Assembly: GCA_048939465.1 (NCBI GenBank)
Contig: JBHLPL010000097.1
Coordinates: 1-7,385 of the forward strand
Source of the DNA: Promethearchaeota archaeon
Lineage (GTDB): Archaea; Asgardarchaeota; Odinarchaeia; Odinarchaeales; JBHLKK01
DNA length: 7,385 bases
Direction: 5' to 3'
Position 1 is the first letter of the stretch. Every line of letters begins with the position of its first letter. The translations under genes and the position numbers were made by a program. The notes beneath the pieces are model-generated. The model worked only from the letters and a program-made list of their open reading frames with translations. It was not told the origin of the DNA and did no database searches. Positions 2 to 7,385 of the stretch are shown piece by piece.

Positions 2-502
2 AATCAGAAAACCGTGTTTTTTACCGTCAGGGGCAAGAAAATCGGCTACTGCCGTCACTGCGATTATTGTATAAAGAACAAAGAATGCGCGCTTAAGGAC
101 GATATGTATGAGCTCTATTCCTTGCTAGAGAACTCCAAAGGGATAGTAATCGCTACACCAGTATATAATGGAGGAGTCAGTGCACAGACCAAAGCAGTAA
201 TGGATCGGTGCAGAGCCTTGGTCGCTGCAGACACCGGGTTTTTTAGATACAAAGCTGGCATGGCAATTGCAGTTGGTGGGGACAGAGTGGGTGGACAGGA
301 ACTTGCAATACAGCAGATTATAACATTCTATGTTCTGAACGGAGCAGTCCCGATAAGCGGTGGCTTCTTCGGTTCAAACTTGGGAGCAACTTTTTGGTCA
401 AAGGATACTTTAGAAGGTGTCAAGGAAGACAAGGAAGGTTTTAGGAGCCTGAAAAAGACTGTAAAGAAATTCGCCAAGTTCCTGGGTAGGTTCAGTATTT
501 AG
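2..502 (+). CDS. Iron-sulfur flavoprotein (Isf)/NADPH-dependent FMN reductase family, flavodoxin fold; 5'-truncated by the window edge
   Basis: The frame is open from base 2 (NQKT-VFFTVRGKKIGY), so the GTG at 14 is probably not the true start. It has the compact Cys motif CRHCDYCIKNKEC (CX2CX2CX5C) followed by LKDD, the FMN-binding IATPVYNGGVSAQTKAVMDR and AIAVGGDRVGGQE, all typical of Isf-like proteins. Confidence 0.9.
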   Translation, partial: NQKTVFFTVRGKKIGYCRHCDYCIKNKECALKDDMYELYSLLENSKGIVIATPVYNGGVSAQTKAVMDRCRALVAADTGFFRYKAGMAIAVGGDRVGGQELAIQQIITFYVLNGAVPISGGFFGSNLGATFWSKDTLEGVKEDKEGFRSLKKTVKKFAKFLGRFSI

Positions 503-535
503 GTTCGGAAGCGAGAGGTCAAGAATTGCCGAGAG

Positions 536-1120
536 ATGATTGTTGTGAAAGAAGAAAGGAAGAAAAAAAGGAAGGTTGCCTGGGGGATCTCGGGAAGTGG
601 TGATCTATTAGCTGAAATCGTTGAGATTATGAAAGAAATCAAAAGGGAGTATGATACTGAAGTAGATATTAGGCTATATCTCTCCAAGGCTGCAGACAAA
701 GTAGTTAAATGGTATAAATTGGGAAATGTCCTAAAGGAGAGTTTTGACAGAGTCTTTGTTGAAGTAGATTCAAATTCACCGTTCTTGGCGGGCGAATTAC
801 AGTTAGGAAAATACGAATTCTTACTGATAGCTCCTGCGACATCAACTACTGTCGCAAAGATTTCATTGGGAATAGGAGATACCCTGCTTACCAACTCAGC
901 AATTATGGCCTTGAAAGCGTTCATTCCTGTTTACATAAAACCCTCTGATTATAAGGAAGGAACAATGGTTACTCAACTCCCTAAAGGAAAAGAACTGAAG
1001 ATCAGGATTAGGAAGGAAGATGTGGAACACGTAGACAGGTTGAGAGTAATGGACGGCGTTCACGTGCTAGAGGAGCCCAAAGAGATTCGTGAGGTTTTCA
1101 GAAAGCATTTCAGGCTATAG
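536..1120 (+). CDS. afpA: Archaeoflavoprotein AfpA (HFCD-fold flavoprotein; DmrX/DmrB-related, no ferredoxin domain)
   Basis: Motifs KVAWGISGSG, LYLSKAADKVVKWYKL, VEVDSNSPFLAGELQLGKYEFLLIAPATSTTVAKISLGIGDTLLTNS and PVYIKPSD match the AfpA family as I recall it. The protein has no Cys, so no Fe-S domain. Confidence 0.85.
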   Translation: MIVVKEERKKKRKVAWGISGSGDLLAEIVEIMKEIKREYDTEVDIRLYLSKAADKVVKWYKLGNVLKESFDRVFVEVDSNSPFLAGELQLGKYEFLLIAPATSTTVAKISLGIGDTLLTNSAIMALKAFIPVYIKPSDYKEGTMVTQLPKGKELKIRIRKEDVEHVDRLRVMDGVHVLEEPKEIREVFRKHFRL

Positions 1121-1196
1121 GGAAAGGCGAGACATTCCTGAAGACTCTGATTGCAATATCTGTCTGAAGAATGATTCCGAATTAAGAAGACAATAG

Positions 1197-1204
1197 TTAT
1201 AAAT
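1197..1204 (+). promoter_or_regulatory. Putative archaeal TATA box for the ferritin-like gene
   Basis: TTATAAAT preceded by purine-rich AAGAAGACAATAG, about 35-50 nt upstream of the candidate starts. Confidence 0.55.
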
Positions 1205-1240
1205 GCTAACTCTTAAAAACTCATTAATCCAAGATGTTCA

Positions 1241-1735
1241 GTGGTGATCTTATTGACTCAAGAGAAGAAGGAAATTCTAGGTTTTCTAAAAGAGCAAATC
1301 AAACTGGAGGGGAGGATTGTCAAGATAGCCGAAAAAACAGTAAGTAAGACGGAAAATGTATTAGTAAGAGAGATGATAAGAGGCATAGCGTTAGACTCCA
1401 GGAAACACGCAAACCTGATAACTGCGATGATTGGGATCTTACTGAGCAAAACTCCATTTTTGAGCGTTAAGGAGAGGAAGGATATAGGGGAGGGCATCAA
1501 AGAGCACATCAAGCTTGAGGAGAAGGCTATAGAAACCTATACAGATTTGCTGAAACAAGTTGAGAATGAATATATGAGGCTACTTCTTAAATATCTAATA
1601 GCTGATGAACACAGACATCACGAGTTGCTGACAAGAATAGACAAGGAGATAGTAGAGGCTGAGACCTTCACTGATGAAGATGTCTGGGATATAATGTGGA
1701 AGGACTCGGTCTTTCACGGTTCACCTGGTGGATGA
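1241..1735 (+). CDS. Ferritin-like/rubrerythrin-family four-helix-bundle protein (true start may be TTG at 1253)
   Basis: Two tandem helix pairs carry E23...D52-S-R-K-H56 and E93...D122-E-H-R-H126. An SD-like GGTGAT at 1243-1248 lies just before the in-frame TTG at 1253. Confidence 0.8.
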   Translation: MVILLTQEKKEILGFLKEQIKLEGRIVKIAEKTVSKTENVLVREMIRGIALDSRKHANLITAMIGILLSKTPFLSVKERKDIGEGIKEHIKLEEKAIETYTDLLKQVENEYMRLLLKYLIADEHRHHELLTRIDKEIVEAETFTDEDVWDIMWKDSVFHGSPGG

Positions 1736-2917: not shown

Positions 2918-3817
2918 TTGATCGCTCTGGAGGGAAGTGAATCACTTCAAGAGAAGAGCAAAGCATATTATGTATGGAACACCGTTCTGGCAAGTTTGAT
3001 ATGGGGACCGAGTTTTATCGTCAACAAGATCGGGCTTGAGTACGTGGATGCATTCAACTTCTCATTCCTGCGTTTCCTGATTGCTTCTATTACAATCATA
3101 CCCGTAGCCTTTTCCTTGGGGAGAATTCGATTATCGTTGTTTAAGAATAAGCTGATCTGGTTAGTCGGAGCCTTTAATGCAGCAGGCTTCCTGTTTCAGT
3201 ACCTCGGCATGACGTATACTACAGCTTCGAAGTCCTCACTCTTGGTAAACTCGAGTGTCATAATTGTTGCTATCCTAAGCTTCTTGATCTTCAAGGAGAA
3301 GTTTTCAAATCAGAAGAAGCTCGGCGTCTTTGCTGGTTTCTTAGGTTCTGCACTACTTGCAACGGGAGGAAATCTGACTGGCTTGATGAGTGGTGAACTC
3401 ACTGGGGATATTTTGGTATTTCTTGCAGGGGTCTTCTGGGCCTTTTTCATGGTATCCAACAAGAAAATGGTTTCGGAGGAAACAGACTTGACGGAAATGA
3501 CAGTTTGTGTCATGATCATAACAGCGATAGTCCAACTTCCATTTCCATTCATATTTGGAACCACAAATATAATGACCATGACGTGGCAAGGATGGGGTGC
3601 CATAGTCTTCACCGGGGTCTTTTGTTCAACAGTAACTTACTTCCTTTGGAGTGAAGGGCTAAAGGGTATAACAGTGACTACTTCAGCAATTACTCTTCTT
3701 CTTGAGATCGTGTGGGCCATGATTCTCGCATTTACCCTGTTAGGTGAAGGATTTACAGTAGTAGGAAGTATAGGGGCCATTCTTATAATGGCATCAATAT
3801 TTCTGGCCTCAAAATAA
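2918..3817 (+). CDS. EamA/DMT-family transporter (two EamA repeats); exact start uncertain
   Basis: IWGPSFIVNKIGL...FLRFLIA, YLGMTYTTASKSSLLVNSSVIIVAILSFLIFKEKF, and in the second repeat W..GLKGITVTTSAITLLLEIVWAMILAFTLLGE; about ten TM segments. Confidence 0.92.
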   Translation: MIALEGSESLQEKSKAYYVWNTVLASLIWGPSFIVNKIGLEYVDAFNFSFLRFLIASITIIPVAFSLGRIRLSLFKNKLIWLVGAFNAAGFLFQYLGMTYTTASKSSLLVNSSVIIVAILSFLIFKEKFSNQKKLGVFAGFLGSALLATGGNLTGLMSGELTGDILVFLAGVFWAFFMVSNKKMVSEETDLTEMTVCVMIITAIVQLPFPFIFGTTNIMTMTWQGWGAIVFTGVFCSTVTYFLWSEGLKGITVTTSAITLLLEIVWAMILAFTLLGEGFTVVGSIGAILIMASIFLASK

Positions 3818-3828
3818 GAAGGCAATTC

Positions 3829-3855
3829 GTAACCTGTCCGAGGAGGAGGGGTTAC
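3829..3855. terminator. Stem-loop between the convergent EamA and ATP-grasp genes (possible bidirectional terminator or stabilising hairpin)
   Basis: GTAACC (3829-3834) pairs with GGTTAC (3850-3855), extended by an inner TCC/GGA stem around a GAGGA loop. It lies in the 58-bp gap between the two stop codons. No long U-tract follows. Confidence 0.4.
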
Positions 3856-3875
3856 ATCCAGCAATTATCTTCAGG

Positions 3876-4742
3876 TCAGTATTTCTCTAGGTGGTTAACA
3901 ATCATCCTCGCTATATTCTCTTTTGGACCCTTGAATCCGAACAGAGCATTGATTTCTAGAAAATAGAGTTCTTGCTCGGTAGATGGTAATGTATCAATAG
4001 CAAACATCTCAAGTGAGAAAATCTCTTTGGCTTTGAGGGCCAGCTCTTTTGACTGCTTGGCGTATTCTTCGACTTTCGTATCAATCTCCTTTGCTCTCCC
4101 TACGGTTAAAGGGACAGCTCCCTGATAGAGGTTATGTCTGAACGCTTCTGGATTGTATCTGACATATTGGGAGGCGATGTCCTCTCCTATTACCAACGTT
4201 CTGATATCGTAGCCAGGATTCGATATGAATTTCTGCAGGTACAAAATGCCGTGCTCCTTATGCAATAATTTGAGGTTTTCTTCTTCATTCTCCTGGATCA
4301 ATTCTATCCCTATCCCTCTTCCGCCAATTATTGGCTTGAAAACGACCGTCTCACTCCTTTTGAGAAATCTTAAGGCAACATCTAGATTAAGAGTAGTAAT
4401 TGTCTCTGGCATCTTGACGTGATGGGCCAGGTGCCTCTTCCATAGCAGATACGTACTCAGCTTATCACATTTAGACAGGGCTTTGGACGACGGAATTGTC
4501 GCACAATTCTGCCTCTCTAGCTCCTCCATCACAGATAGCATGTAGGGAACATATAATCTCCTTAACCCTGGAGGCGGTGCTCTGAAAAGGCACAGTCTGG
4601 GTATTTCCTCAAAAGGCAGGATTACGTCGTTCCAACCAAGGAATCTGTAGTCAATTCTTGATCTATTCAATTCTTGAAGAATTCTTTGGGTTTCGTAAGT
4701 GGTTTCTACTCCTATTATCCATATCAAGATGCATTCTTCCAT
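3876..4742 (-). CDS. RimK/LysX/MptN/CofF-family ATP-grasp ligase, substrate unknown
   Basis: Motifs CDKLSTY, MPETI, VVFKPIIGGRGIGI, YLQKFI...DIRTLVIG, R....FRHNLYQGA, AIDTL and LEIN form the ATP-grasp signature set of the RimK family. Confidence 0.88.
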   Translation of the reverse strand: MEECILIWIIGVETTYETQRILQELNRSRIDYRFLGWNDVILPFEEIPRLCLFRAPPPGLRRLYVPYMLSVMEELERQNCATIPSSKALSKCDKLSTYLLWKRHLAHHVKMPETITTLNLDVALRFLKRSETVVFKPIIGGRGIGIELIQENEEENLKLLHKEHGILYLQKFISNPGYDIRTLVIGEDIASQYVRYNPEAFRHNLYQGAVPLTVGRAKEIDTKVEEYAKQSKELALKAKEIFSLEMFAIDTLPSTEQELYFLEINALFGFKGPKENIARMIVNHLEKY

Positions 4743-4828
4743 ATCAGGCTCGTATTACGTAGATAAGGTAAGGTTCTCTAATTAAGGCTTGTTTTCTCTA
4801 ATCCTGAAGATATCGAGTAGGTGGAAGA

Positions 4829-5044
4829 ATGAAAAACACCAAGGACGTTCGATTCTCGACGGTTTGGAACATATGTTCTAAGAATTCCGCAGGACGTTCT
4901 GAATTTCATAGGAAGCAGGTACCGCTCTTTGGGCTCCGGATTACGCTCGTCCGGATGATTGTTGGCCACAAAAAGCAACATTTTTTAGTCAGAGAATTAT
5001 TGTGGAACCTGCGAGACTTAACTCGTCCTTGTGGGACGTTCTGA
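4829..5044 (+). CDS. Doubtful 71-aa hypothetical ORF upstream of the RtcB-like gene
   Basis: ATG start with SD-like AGGTGG at 4819-4824, in the same orientation as the RtcB-like gene and ending 36 bp before it. No recognisable motif, and the DNA is rich in palindromes and repeats. Confidence 0.2.
   Translation: MKNTKDVRFSTVWNICSKNSAGRSEFHRKQVPLFGLRITLVRMIVGHKKQHFLVRELLWNLRDLTRPCGTF
4842..5044 (+). repeat. Three dispersed direct copies of GGACGTTC
   Basis: Copies at 4843-4850, 4892-4899 and 5034-5041. Copies 1 and 2 share AGGACGTTC; copies 2 and 3 share GGACGTTCTGA (11 bp). Confidence 0.55.
4867..4878. promoter_or_regulatory. Perfect 12-bp palindrome GAACATATGTTC (putative operator)
   Basis: Directly visible GAAC-ATAT-GTTC in the divergent spacer between the ATP-grasp and RtcB-like genes. 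Confidence 0.4.
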
Positions 5045-5080
5045 GACTGTCTTCAAATAGCCTTTACAGGGGGCGTATGG

Positions 5081-6304
5081 ATGAGCAGCTCAAACCTTGC
5101 AAGCATGGACAAGCAAGACCTATTAAAACGAGCGAAAGATCATATCTTCTCTCTCGGTCTTAAAGACGCCGCTTCCCGCCTTTGCCAAGCAAACATGCAG
5201 TATGGGCTTGCGAAGTTTCACATAGTCCAAGAGAGGAACGGTATCAGGCCAGATGCTACCTTTATTTCCACACCGGATGAAACGGTGACTAGGAATACTG
5301 AGAGGTGGAATGGGGGAATAGGCTACGGAGGTAAGATTGCTTGGGGGAACGGCAGAGAGAAGTTGGTAATTCTGGACGTCATGCCCAACGCTTGCGGCAT
5401 GCTCGTTGGAGGATTAGAAGAACTGCCTGAATCCAAGGACATTATTAACAATATAGCCAATCTCGCAGAGGAAGAAGTTGAGGTCGACGGTATTCCAATT
5501 AACTGGGATTTTGGGGTAGGCAATCACTTCATAGACGTTTTTAAGGTTTCAAGAGTTTTACCTGTTGACTTACCGAATTATGCATTCATAATCCACTCTG
5601 GCACAATTGAGCTCAAAGCTGATAACCCGAAGGGGTTTGGTTTGTACATTGAAAGAAGCGCAATACTGCGGGATATGGCCGAAGTTGCCAGCACACCATT
5701 TGGAAAATGTCACTTTCTGTTGGGTTCCGATGCCAGAGAATATTACGAGTTTTCCAAATACGCCGAAGGATTCAGTGCAAGGAGGAGATCATTAGCAGCA
5801 GAGAGAATATTTGGGGAGTATAGAGAAATAGCAAACGTCTGTCACCAAGGCCTAGATAACATGAATGAAATTCGTCTAGGAGTTCAGGATACCACGGGAG
5901 GAGACCGTCCGGAATCTCTGCTTCCGATAGCATTAAGAGACGACTTGCCCGCTTATCTTGTCAAGGGGTTGCCCAATCTTTCTGAGGAAGTAATCAAGAC
6001 TCAAGGCTTCAAAGATAGAGCTGAGAGATTGGGGGTTATGGAAAGACTTACTGGAGCGAATATCGCACCACACGGCGGAGGCTATGCCTTCCCTGATTTG
6101 TTAAATGTCGGAAATATCGTAGAGACGTCATCAGCAAGGTACTTCGTTATTGAAATGGACCATACAGATGGACAGAAGATAGTATCAAATCTTAAGGGAC
6201 TTCGATTCAATTACAGGGGAAGGACTATCATAGTTAGTTCTCTTGAACTTGGACTAGTCAAGATAGCTACAAGGCTCATACCTGAGTATATTCTTAAAAT
6301 CTGA
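5081..6304 (+). CDS. Highly divergent RtcB-fold protein (GTP/Mn-dependent 3'-phosphate RNA ligase superfamily)
   Basis: Manual alignment to Pyrococcus horikoshii RtcB from memory: TPD66 (MPD65), NAC105GM (INC98GV), GVGN148H149FID (GSGN202H203FLE), IIH172SG (VH234TG), CH255Q (AH329N), PH331GGG (CH404GAG), Y378 (Y451), and C-terminal GLVKIATRLIPEYILK (GIAKLVARMRPIGVAK). The helix EYYEFSKYAEGFSARRR matches RYFSAMKAAANFAWANR. SD-like AGGGGG at 5068-5073. Confidence 0.8.
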   Translation: MSSSNLASMDKQDLLKRAKDHIFSLGLKDAASRLCQANMQYGLAKFHIVQERNGIRPDATFISTPDETVTRNTERWNGGIGYGGKIAWGNGREKLVILDVMPNACGMLVGGLEELPESKDIINNIANLAEEEVEVDGIPINWDFGVGNHFIDVFKVSRVLPVDLPNYAFIIHSGTIELKADNPKGFGLYIERSAILRDMAEVASTPFGKCHFLLGSDAREYYEFSKYAEGFSARRRSLAAERIFGEYREIANVCHQGLDNMNEIRLGVQDTTGGDRPESLLPIALRDDLPAYLVKGLPNLSEEVIKTQGFKDRAERLGVMERLTGANIAPHGGGYAFPDLLNVGNIVETSSARYFVIEMDHTDGQKIVSNLKGLRFNYRGRTIIVSSLELGLVKIATRLIPEYILKI

Positions 6305-6368
6305 TCTGCCATTCAGGAGTAGGAACCACAATATTGTATCCATAGCAAAGGAGAAGGAGAATTCGTTC

Positions 6369-6764
6369 CTAAATCTTGACCTTTCCTATTTCCAACAGAT
6401 TTGATCTCGAGAAAACACCGATGGGTTCTCCCTTGCTTTCCACCACTAGATGATCTATGCCTTTCTCAGTCATTGTTGTTAGTGCTTCCTTAACTGTGGC
6501 GTTTTCAGAGATTTTTACGATCGGGCTAGCGATTATTTTTCCAACGGGCATATCGGGGTCAGTATCGCCAATAACAGTCTTAAGAAGAATGTCCTGCTTG
6601 GTAATCGATCCCACTGGCTTCTGTTTTTCGGTCACAACCAGAATGGGAGTACCAGTTTCAATCATCATTCTGGCAGCTTCCTTTATTGTGACTGAGCTTT
6701 CGATGGAAATCATTCCTCTGCTTGCATATACTCTTATAGGCTTATTGATGTCTAGTTTTAGCAT
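6369..6764 (-). CDS. Stand-alone CBS-pair (Bateman domain) protein
   Basis: Two CBS repeats: ISIESSVTIKEAARMM...LVVTEKQKPVGSITKQDIL and IVKISENATVKEALTTM...HLVVESKGEPIGVFSRSNLL. SD GGGGAG at 6778-6773 on the minus strand. Confidence 0.92.
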   Translation of the reverse strand: MLKLDINKPIRVYASRGMISIESSVTIKEAARMMIETGTPILVVTEKQKPVGSITKQDILLKTVIGDTDPDMPVGKIIASPIVKISENATVKEALTTMTEKGIDHLVVESKGEPIGVFSRSNLLEIGKVKI

Positions 6765-6778
6765 GATACGTTCTCCCC

Positions 6779-6808
6779 TAACTATAAGTTTCTCTTTAAC
6801 TATAATTA
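6779..6808. promoter_or_regulatory. Divergent promoter region for the CBS and phosphoesterase genes, with a 9-bp direct repeat
   Basis: TAACTATAA at 6779-6787 and 6797-6805. TATAATTA (6801-6808) lies roughly equidistant (about 35 bp) from both start codons. Confidence 0.45.
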
Positions 6809-6841
6809 TGATGGACTTAAAACTATTGTGAGGTGCGAGTC

Positions 6842-7385
6842 ATGAAGGATTTGGTCATAGCACACATATCAGATTCTCACATATCTAACAACCGTGCAGA
6901 GTTCAAGAAAGACTTTTTCATGAAAGCGGTAAATGAAATAAATAGACTATCACCCGGCCTGACAATCCACACAGGCGACCTAACGGATAATGGGCTAAAA
7001 GAAGAATTTGAGATGGCAAAAGATCTTGTTTCTTGGTTTGAAAAAAAACCAGTAATTTTAATGGGAAATCATGATGCCAAAAACGTGGGCTACAGGCTTT
7101 TTGAGGACTACATAGGGCCTCGTGACGTAATCGTGGAAAATGAGCATTTTCTCCTCGTAGGCGTCGATAGTAGTATACCTGACCGCAATGAGGGGAAGTT
7201 TGGTAAGATGCATATGAAATGGGTTGCGGACGTGTTAGGAGAAAAAGGGGATGGGAAAATAAAGATAGTGGCATTTCACCACCATCTTGTGCCGGTCCCA
7301 AATGCCGGAAGAGAAAGAAGCATGATTTATGATGCTGGCGACGTACTGAAGTTAGTTCTGGACCACGGTGTTGATATTGTTCTTA
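6842..7385 (+). CDS. Calcineurin-like metallophosphoesterase (CpdA/Icc-like), 3'-truncated by the window edge; absent from the supplied ORF track
   Basis: My translation from ATG 6842 is open to the window end: MKDLVIAHISDSHISNN...IHTGDLTDNG...LMGNHDAKN...VDSSIPDRNEG...AFHHHLVPVPNAGRERSMIYDAGDVLKLVLDHGVDIVL. It shows the DxH, GD, GNHD and HH motifs; the final GHxH would lie just past the edge. SD GAGGTG at 6830-6835. Confidence 0.93.
   Translation, partial: MKDLVIAHISDSHISNNRAEFKKDFFMKAVNEINRLSPGLTIHTGDLTDNGLKEEFEMAKDLVSWFEKKPVILMGNHDAKNVGYRLFEDYIGPRDVIVENEHFLLVGVDSSIPDRNEGKFGKMHMKWVADVLGEKGDGKIKIVAFHHHLVPVPNAGRERSMIYDAGDVLKLVLDHGVDIVL

Follow-up and report, generated by a model that had tools for sequence, protein, structure and literature searches.

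Among known enzyme folds RtcB is, to our knowledge, alone in joining 3'-phosphate ends via a covalent histidine-guanosine monophosphate (His-GMP) intermediate, and every characterised member of the fold that we are aware of acts on RNA or DNA ends. The activities reported are RNA ligation, DNA3'pp5'G capping and capping by Myxococcus xanthus RtcB3 (PMC10630183), and RtcB3 is cited there as capping 5'-phosphate ends. In the Pyrococcus horikoshii enzyme (PhoRtcB), metal site M1 is formed by His234, His329 and Cys98 and metal site M2 by Cys98, Asp95 and His203, the nucleophile is His404, the guanine-specific contacts are made by Lys480 (to O6) and Glu206 (to N1/N2), and Asn330 contacts the gamma-phosphate (PMC9745838); the 5'-OH strand is gripped via Asn202, Arg238, Arg190, Gln194 and Ser200 (PMC8051266). 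Here we describe a gene in a window of 7385 bp from a Promethearchaeota archaeon, the window being the whole stretch of DNA analysed and at the same time an entire contig (C28) of a 1.96-Mb genome in 152 contigs. The gene product belongs to a sister family of RtcB that is compact and unannotated, lies outside PF01139, has its acceptor site rebuilt and comes with a partner set of its own.

5081..6304, + strand: RtcB-like gene (P0001), 407 aa (open reading frame list and translation, homologues, AlphaFold2 model, VIA fold match, hhalign)

The open reading frame (ORF) at 5081-6304 is a genuine conserved gene, described by no searched family model or source name. In a 90%-clustered protein collection it has 863 homologues at E <= 1e-3, a typical one being about 400 aa long and 50-57% identical to the window protein, and an exhaustive search of 1.84 billion 50%-cluster representatives returned 264 matching clusters, reaching about 27% identity. 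As an earlier note on this DNA, made from the sequence, had expected, every named homologue is a "hypothetical protein". Against the Pfam and NCBIfam models hmmscan gave zero matches even at E 10, PF01139 included, and the protein falls short of the PF01139 gathering score. A PF01139 profile search of the whole genome matched contigs C31 and C78 alone and nothing on the window contig, phmmer against the PDB found nothing relevant, the literature searched held no published description of the compact family, and Rfam returned no RNA families in the window.

The 407-aa protein is predicted to adopt the three-dimensional RtcB fold over its whole chain. The AlphaFold2 model, built on a 36-sequence alignment, has a mean predicted local distance difference test score of 93.2 and a predicted template modelling (TM) score of 0.92, and Foldseek of this model against the PDB gave 16 top matches that were all RtcB chains (E 3.5e-8 to 6.6e-6, prob 1.00), with no credible match below them. 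VIA-align of the model with RtcB structures yielded Z scores of 19.3-22.4 with 301-320 residues aligned at a root-mean-square deviation of 3.2-4.1 A, spanning model residues 11-407 and PhoRtcB 16-481; Thermus TTHA1785, human RTCB and zebrafish RtcB were matched as well, and the best non-RtcB fold reached only Z 5.2. These results bear out the fold assignment of the earlier note. The RtcB match came also from the AlphaFold DB clusters and the ESM Atlas, and a PDB search with the 36-sequence profile found RtcB weakly at the matching region (E 1.2). Judging from the full-length superposition, the catalytic residues would converge on one site. The first ten residues of the model have lower confidence, and the second methionine (M9, nt 5105) may be the true start because most homologues begin at the equivalent of residue 9-11.

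For residue mapping, a family alignment of 88 diverse members, down to about 27% identity, was compared by hhalign with a reference alignment of 30 canonical RtcBs from genomes of the same phylum. The two profiles align with Prob 90.8 and E 1.2e-6 over 345 columns, positions 14-407 of the family against 5-483 of RtcB. With P. horikoshii numbering taken from the PH1602 sequence, the correspondences are as follows.

5276..5278, + strand: D66 of the PD motif, equivalent to PhoRtcB Asp65, present in 97% of the 88 (hhalign, conservation)
5384..5398, + strand: P102-N103-A104-C105-G106, opposite the canonical D-I-N-C-G; C105 is the metal-bridging Cys98 (hhalign, conservation)
5522..5530, + strand: N148-H149-F150, equivalent to Asn202-His203-Phe204 (hhalign, conservation 98/100/98%)
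5594..5596, + strand: H172, equivalent to His234 (M1 ligand); the SRG of HTGSRG is replaced after H172 (hhalign, conservation)
5843..5848, + strand: H255-Q256, equivalent to His329 (M1 ligand)-Asn330 (hhalign, conservation)
6068..6085, + strand: P330-H331-G-G-G-Y335; H331 is the GMP-accepting His404 of H-G-A-G-R, and Y335 is Arg408 (hhalign, conservation)
6212..6217, + strand: Y378-R379, equivalent to Tyr451-Lys452 (hhalign, conservation)
6296..6298, + strand: K406, the penultimate Lys, equivalent to Lys480 (hhalign)

Further pairings match D152 to Glu206 and D339 to Arg412. H149, H172, H255 and H331 are 100% invariant among the 88 members, and C105 (95%), N148 (98%), F150 (98%), P330 (99%), G332 (98%) and G334 (99%) are nearly so. 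The M1 ligand set (Cys98, His234, His329) is complete in the aligned C105, H172 and H255, and the nucleophilic His of the H-G-x-G loop is found as H331 in P-H-G-G-G-Y. Asn202, the counterpart of N148, contacts the GTP phosphates and the 5'-OH in RtcB, and Tyr451, the counterpart of Y378, stacks on the base there. The near-absolute conservation at identities near 27% argues for a working active site.

Much of what the earlier note had said of the core holds under hhalign: the motif order is as it gave it, and no chance likeness, with the four His invariant and D66, C105, N148 and F150 conserved in at least 95%, and the GMP-accepting H331 together with N148, F150, Y378 and K406 all pair with RtcB counterparts. 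Its statement that all metal ligands are kept is right for C105, H149, H172 and H255 and wrong for D66, which corresponds to Asp65 of PDGH and not to the ligand Asp95. A different nucleotide, also proposed there, is not indicated for this protein, in which the guanine-contact equivalents K406 (Lys480) and D152 (Glu206) are both present.

The substrate side, by comparison, is rebuilt. Among the contacts to the 5'-OH strand N148 (Asn202) is retained, Arg238 is replaced by I176/E177, and the segment carrying Arg190 and Gln194 is deleted. Arg408 has become Y335 and Arg412 has become D339, as expected from the reported change of HGAGR to HGGGY, and Q256 stands at Asn330, in agreement with the HN to HQ exchange seen there. 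The P-G-S-M-G loop has no conserved equivalent; PIALRDD stands opposite P-V-L-I-PGSMG, much as the note had placed ALRDD there. The further change of HRKG to IRLG is a less secure matter, since the two motifs are paired in a stretch that is aligned with low confidence, and R265 varies; the loss of Lys351 stands in that no conserved basic counterpart is seen. Because the 5'-OH strand contacts (Arg238, Arg190, Gln194) and the basic Lys351, Arg408 and Arg412 are absent, the prediction of a changed acceptor, made already in the earlier note, is well founded.

The architecture is altered as well. The spacing from the Cys to the GNH motif is 44 aa here and 105 aa in PhoRtcB, close to the contraction from about 100 to about 40 aa estimated before; in E. 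coli RtcB it is 90, as derived from the residue numbers (PMC9745838). An insert of about 7 aa (TVTRNTE) follows the PD motif, lying in TVTRNTERW with the conserved R71, N72, R75 and W76, and about 21 aa of helix are inserted ahead of H331. A third insertion supposed to follow H331 is not there: H331 to Y378 spans 47 residues, as does His404 to Tyr451, leaving a net insertion of zero. Other residues newly conserved in the family are D29, D143 and E177. The description of the protein as minimal applies in a relative sense only, since its total length is unremarkable and the real contraction is that of the Cys-to-GNH subdomain; E. coli RtcB has about the same length. The family is acidic, with a median isoelectric point (pI) of 6.1 and a net charge of -5 (8.6 and +5 for the RtcBs of the same phylum), and the window protein itself has pI 5.7 and net charge -7.

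The compact protein is not the housekeeping RNA ligase of this organism. Contig C31 carries a canonical RtcB, apparently split by an intein, with all catalytic motifs intact (506 bits to PF01139), and a canonical RtcB is found in 41 of 41 genomes of the phylum sampled. The clustering with ordinary RtcB that had been raised as a possible refutation was checked and is not seen, given the lack of a PF01139 match at E 10 and the separate intact enzyme on C31. The latter lies in one 973-aa open frame (about 2961-5708, minus strand; loci L001/L003), with about 1.4 kb between the parts that match PF01139 positions 1-57 and 45-426, an arrangement that suggests an intein in the same general place as in P. 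horikoshii RtcB. A second PF01139 paralogue on C78 (L002:1342-2790; 482 aa, 327 bits) is similar to PhoRtcB at E 1e-103; it reads HCNSG for DINCG, without Asp95 and Cys98, GYN for AHN, without His329, and FDSGR for HGAGR, without His404, and it looks catalytically dead from these replacements.

The compact family is present in 83 of 201 genomes of the phylum (52 of the 86 high-quality ones); taxonomic families differ in having it, and some genomes have two or three copies. Outside the phylum, going by record titles, it occurs in Bathyarchaeia, Methanocellales, several Asgard lineages, Woese- and Nanoarchaeota and, among bacteria, in Spirochaetota, Desulfobacterales, Anaerolineae, Planctomycetota, Atribacterota, Clostridia and further groups; almost every one of these carriers is a metagenome-assembled genome (MAG). 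Of 401 genomes in the phylum to which locus L094 (from a MAG labelled Bacillota) belongs, just 2 have it, and neither of the two matches is a long fusion protein. The closest relative, at 67% identity, is a Hodarchaeota MAG (L088), where the orthologue (5971-7234) consists of two ORFs that do not share a frame (5971-6366 and 6374-7234), owing to a frameshift or an assembly error.

In the window and on the contig that continues it, the genes around the RtcB-like gene are the following.

3876..4742, - strand: divergent RimK/MptN-like ATP-grasp ligase, resembling MptN, CofF and RimK (Pfam, homology)
6369..6764, - strand: CBS-pair protein, between the RtcB-like and metallophosphoesterase genes (Pfam CBS; a 56% identical protein in the same place in L088)
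6833..7385, + strand: tandem calcineurin-like metallophosphoesterase, first 184 aa, cut by the contig end (Pfam Metallophos)
C12, 8143 down to 7127, - strand: continuation of the metallophosphoesterase gene (13-nt contig-end overlap, tblastn continuity)
C12, 7155-6532, - strand: YpgQ/YedJ-like HD hydrolase gene, following the metallophosphoesterase gene with a 29-nt overlap

Contigs C28 and C12 are adjacent in the genome, because window positions 7373-7385 overlap the reverse-complemented end of C12 (8131-8143) by 13 nt and the metallophosphoesterase gene runs in frame across the junction. The order of RtcB-like gene, CBS pair on the opposite strand, tandem metallophosphoesterase and HD gene is the same in L088. 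The ATP-grasp gene stands head-to-head with the RtcB-like gene, and ORF clustering found no homologue of it in L088. The left part of the window (2-1735, + strand) holds an FMN reductase with a cut 5' end, a PF02441 flavoprotein and a rubrerythrin-like protein, followed by LysE and EamA transporters; these redox and transporter genes are probably unrelated to the RtcB-like finding.

To survey neighbourhoods more widely, ORFs were called in 84 loci and the neighbours clustered, a tight neighbour being defined as one on the same strand at less than 200 bp. One neighbour alone recurs widely, an HD protein with a length of about 210 aa that is present in 29 of the 84 loci; it makes up 25 of the 76 tight neighbours, upstream or downstream, in more than 10 phyla. 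Its closest relatives are B. subtilis YpgQ (5dqv) and E. coli YedJ, and YpgQ is an Mn-dependent nucleoside triphosphate (NTP) pyrophosphohydrolase. A phyletic profile of the HD partner is unspecific at E 1e-25, where 139 of 201 genomes match, and is informative only in its top score class, where 16 of the 17 genomes carry the compact family. The tandem metallophosphoesterase, with a CpdA/Rv0805-like N-terminal half and a YfcE-like C-terminal half, recurs in 8 loci, and an Atlas cluster of 936-aa Metallophos proteins holds an RtcB-like domain (TM 0.73 over 356 residues). Genes of the PHP or PolX-PHP type adjoin the family gene in 8 further loci, and AP_endonuc_2 genes are nearby in 8 loci. The compact family is thus genomically coupled to phosphoesterases.

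Four Planctomycetota loci (L075, L080, L085, L087) share a conserved string of TetR, a DksA/TraR zinc finger, the RtcB-like gene and PolX (polymerase beta plus PHP), which hints at a DNA-end function in that lineage. In the 743-aa protein P0146 an APH/choline-kinase-like domain is fused N-terminally to a family member that keeps all core residues, and its gene clusters with two radical-SAM enzymes, an aminotransferase, an SDR enzyme and two HAD hydrolases. ATP-grasp genes of assorted subfamilies and in variable positions occur in about 8 of the 84 loci, with 3 tight neighbours against 25 for HD. Proteins of 412 and 458 aa encoded downstream of family members are not one family; one begins with a PHP-like H-x-H and matches PHP_C weakly, and the other has weak ATP-grasp matches. 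Counted among the ATP-grasp genes are those for weakly matching proteins of 458-460 aa that lie directly downstream in Loki- and Helarchaeota loci (L035, L046).

From the above-described residues and partners, the protein is likely an active RtcB-superfamily enzyme with a new acceptor. Aided by Mn2+ or a comparable metal, H331 would attack an NTP at its alpha-phosphate to give His331-NMP (nucleoside monophosphate), and the NTP would probably be GTP in this protein because the equivalents of Lys480 and Glu206 are kept. The NMP would then be moved to a phosphomonoester, forming an X-p-p-N intermediate that would either stay as the final cap or be resolved by a hydroxyl into a phosphodiester. The HD hydrolase and the tandem metallophosphoesterase might make the phosphate end ready, for instance where a cyclic phosphate has to be opened, or they might break down an abortive intermediate or the product with its pyrophosphate linkage by hydrolysis. 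As to the acceptor, we lean, at a little short of even chances, to something nucleotide-sized, a small phosphorylated metabolite or a short oligonucleotide end, and not a long RNA strand bound as in RtcB; we do so because of the lost strand contacts, the acidic charge, the fusion to a kinase and the partners that resemble YpgQ and CpdA. A more specific version, which we put forward tentatively as one possibility, is that the His-NMP chemistry has been recruited outside polynucleotide repair: a nucleotide or small phosphorylated metabolite, supplied in some members by the fused APH-type kinase, would be activated to give a pyrophosphate-linked compound (NDP-X or N3'pp5'G-like) or a new phosphodiester, which would be fed or turned over by the HD, metallophosphoesterase or PHP hydrolases.

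Several observations weigh against this proposal. At the M2 site His203 is matched by H149 (100%), and the Asp95 column holds M101/P102, with K/R or P in most members and no acidic counterpart. N103, conserved in 91% and the sole conserved polar residue near that position, or else D66 (97%), might stand in as the M2 ligand; otherwise the second metal site, which grips the GTP beta- and gamma-phosphates, may be altered or absent. The nucleotide is uncertain across the family, position 406 being Lys in 58% and position 152 being N, D, E, G or A among the 88 members. A high-scoring HD orthologue is present in only 16 of the 83 carrier genomes of the phylum, making the HD linkage frequent and not universal, and the APH-kinase fusion is a single cluster at 39% identity. 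Finally, partners of the HD, metallophosphoesterase, PHP and PolX kinds are just as characteristic of RNA or DNA end-healing, which favours a competing view in which the enzyme ligates or GMP-caps RNA or DNA 3'-phosphate ends, binding strands unlike RtcB, with the same partners serving in end-healing and de-capping. That view, a serious rival if a less likely one in our estimate, accords with the polynucleotide substrates of the RtcB-fold enzymes characterised so far, with PolX directly downstream in the four Planctomycetota loci, with the AP_endonuc_2 genes near 8 loci, and with the healing of RNA ends by metallophosphoesterase and HD domains in Pnkp and the CCA-adding enzymes. Against it stand the loss of the known contacts to the 5'-OH strand and of several basic residues, the acidity of the family in contrast to RtcB, and the close relatedness of the Planctomycetota genomes with the four PolX loci, which are hence no independent cases. 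The HD partner, moreover, has its nearest likeness in a nucleotide pyrophosphohydrolase type, and a fusion to an APH small-molecule kinase exists.

Other explanations fare less well. The head-to-head arrangement in the window, the resemblance of the ligase to MptN, CofF and RimK, and the presence of ATP-grasp genes only a few genes away from family members in about 8 of 84 loci would fit a pair for cofactor or metabolite tailoring. We consider such a pair improbable, and the ATP-grasp ligase a doubtful module member, since by ORF clustering L088 lacks a homologue of the window ligase while keeping the CBS-metallophosphoesterase-HD order, the ATP-grasp genes belong to different subfamilies in variable positions, and they are far rarer than HD among tight neighbours (3 against 25). 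That the protein is an ordinary tRNA-splicing or RNA-repair RtcB, merely divergent in sequence, is very hard to credit: it shares the fold and the catalytic His and Cys series, but it has no PF01139 match even at E 10 and no strand-contact residues, the genome has an intact canonical RtcB (506 bits), and within the phylum the family has a patchy distribution, in 83 of 201 genomes, whereas RtcB is in 41 of 41. An inactive relic or scaffold is suggested by the missing Asp95 equivalent and by the clearly degenerate RtcB paralogue in the same genome, yet the two proteins have opposite patterns, the C78 paralogue being far closer to RtcB in sequence while lacking Cys98, His329 and His404, and the compact family keeping four invariant His, with the Cys and Asn-His-Phe in 95% or more of 88 members that reach down to 27% identity; a pseudo-enzyme is therefore most unlikely.

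The significance of the family lies in a sister group of RtcB that retains the chemistry-bearing residues, has its substrate side rebuilt, keeps its own conserved partners and is covered by no database model, while being common in Asgard archaea, Bathyarchaeia, DPANN and many anaerobic bacterial phyla. The identity of its substrate would either extend RNA and DNA end repair to a new enzyme-partner system or place His-NMP phosphate activation in small-molecule or nucleotide metabolism. If the small-acceptor reading is true, it would point to a nucleotide-metabolite or signalling pathway that has so far escaped notice and that is common among archaea of the Asgard group and Bathyarchaeia as well as among bacteria of anaerobic sediments.

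Compared with RtcB itself (PF01139; P. horikoshii PH1602, E. coli RtcB, human RTCB), the window protein shares the whole-length fold (Z 19-22), the bridging Cys, three metal His, Asn-His-Phe, the nucleophilic His in H-G-x-G, Tyr-(Lys/Arg) and the penultimate Lys, as well as the motif order and most motif spacings. It differs in having only about 12-16% identity in the structural alignment and no PF01139 match, in a non-acidic residue at the family's Asp95 position, in the loss from the family of Arg238, Arg190/Gln194, Lys351, Arg408, Arg412 and the PGSMG loop, in a Cys-to-GNH subdomain of 44 instead of 105 aa, in the family inserts T-R-N-x-x-R-W after PD and three helices before the nucleophile, and in an acidic character against the basic one of RtcB. 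As its conserved partner it has an HD hydrolase, whereas that of RtcB is RtcA, archease or PrfH.

Among RtcB relatives, the M. xanthus paralogues offer a precedent for enzymes of the RtcB fold that go no further than moving the NMP to a phosphate (capping) and for differences in the acceptor; we take them to be ordinary PF01139 members acting on polynucleotides, in contrast to the compact family, which lies outside PF01139. The likeness to the RNA 3'-phosphate cyclase RtcA is a functional analogy only, consisting in a covalent His-NMP, transfer of the NMP to a terminal phosphate and attack by a hydroxyl, for RtcA has an unrelated fold and uses ATP. LicA choline kinase and LicC form a kinase/nucleotidyltransferase pair that activates small alcohols, and the APH/choline-kinase-like fusion P0146 suggests a comparable sequence of phosphorylation and then nucleotide activation of the new phosphate. 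LicC-type enzymes, however, have another fold and form no covalent His-NMP, and the analogy comes from one fusion cluster; it is with RtcB that the compact family shares its predicted fold and its catalytic His and Cys residues.

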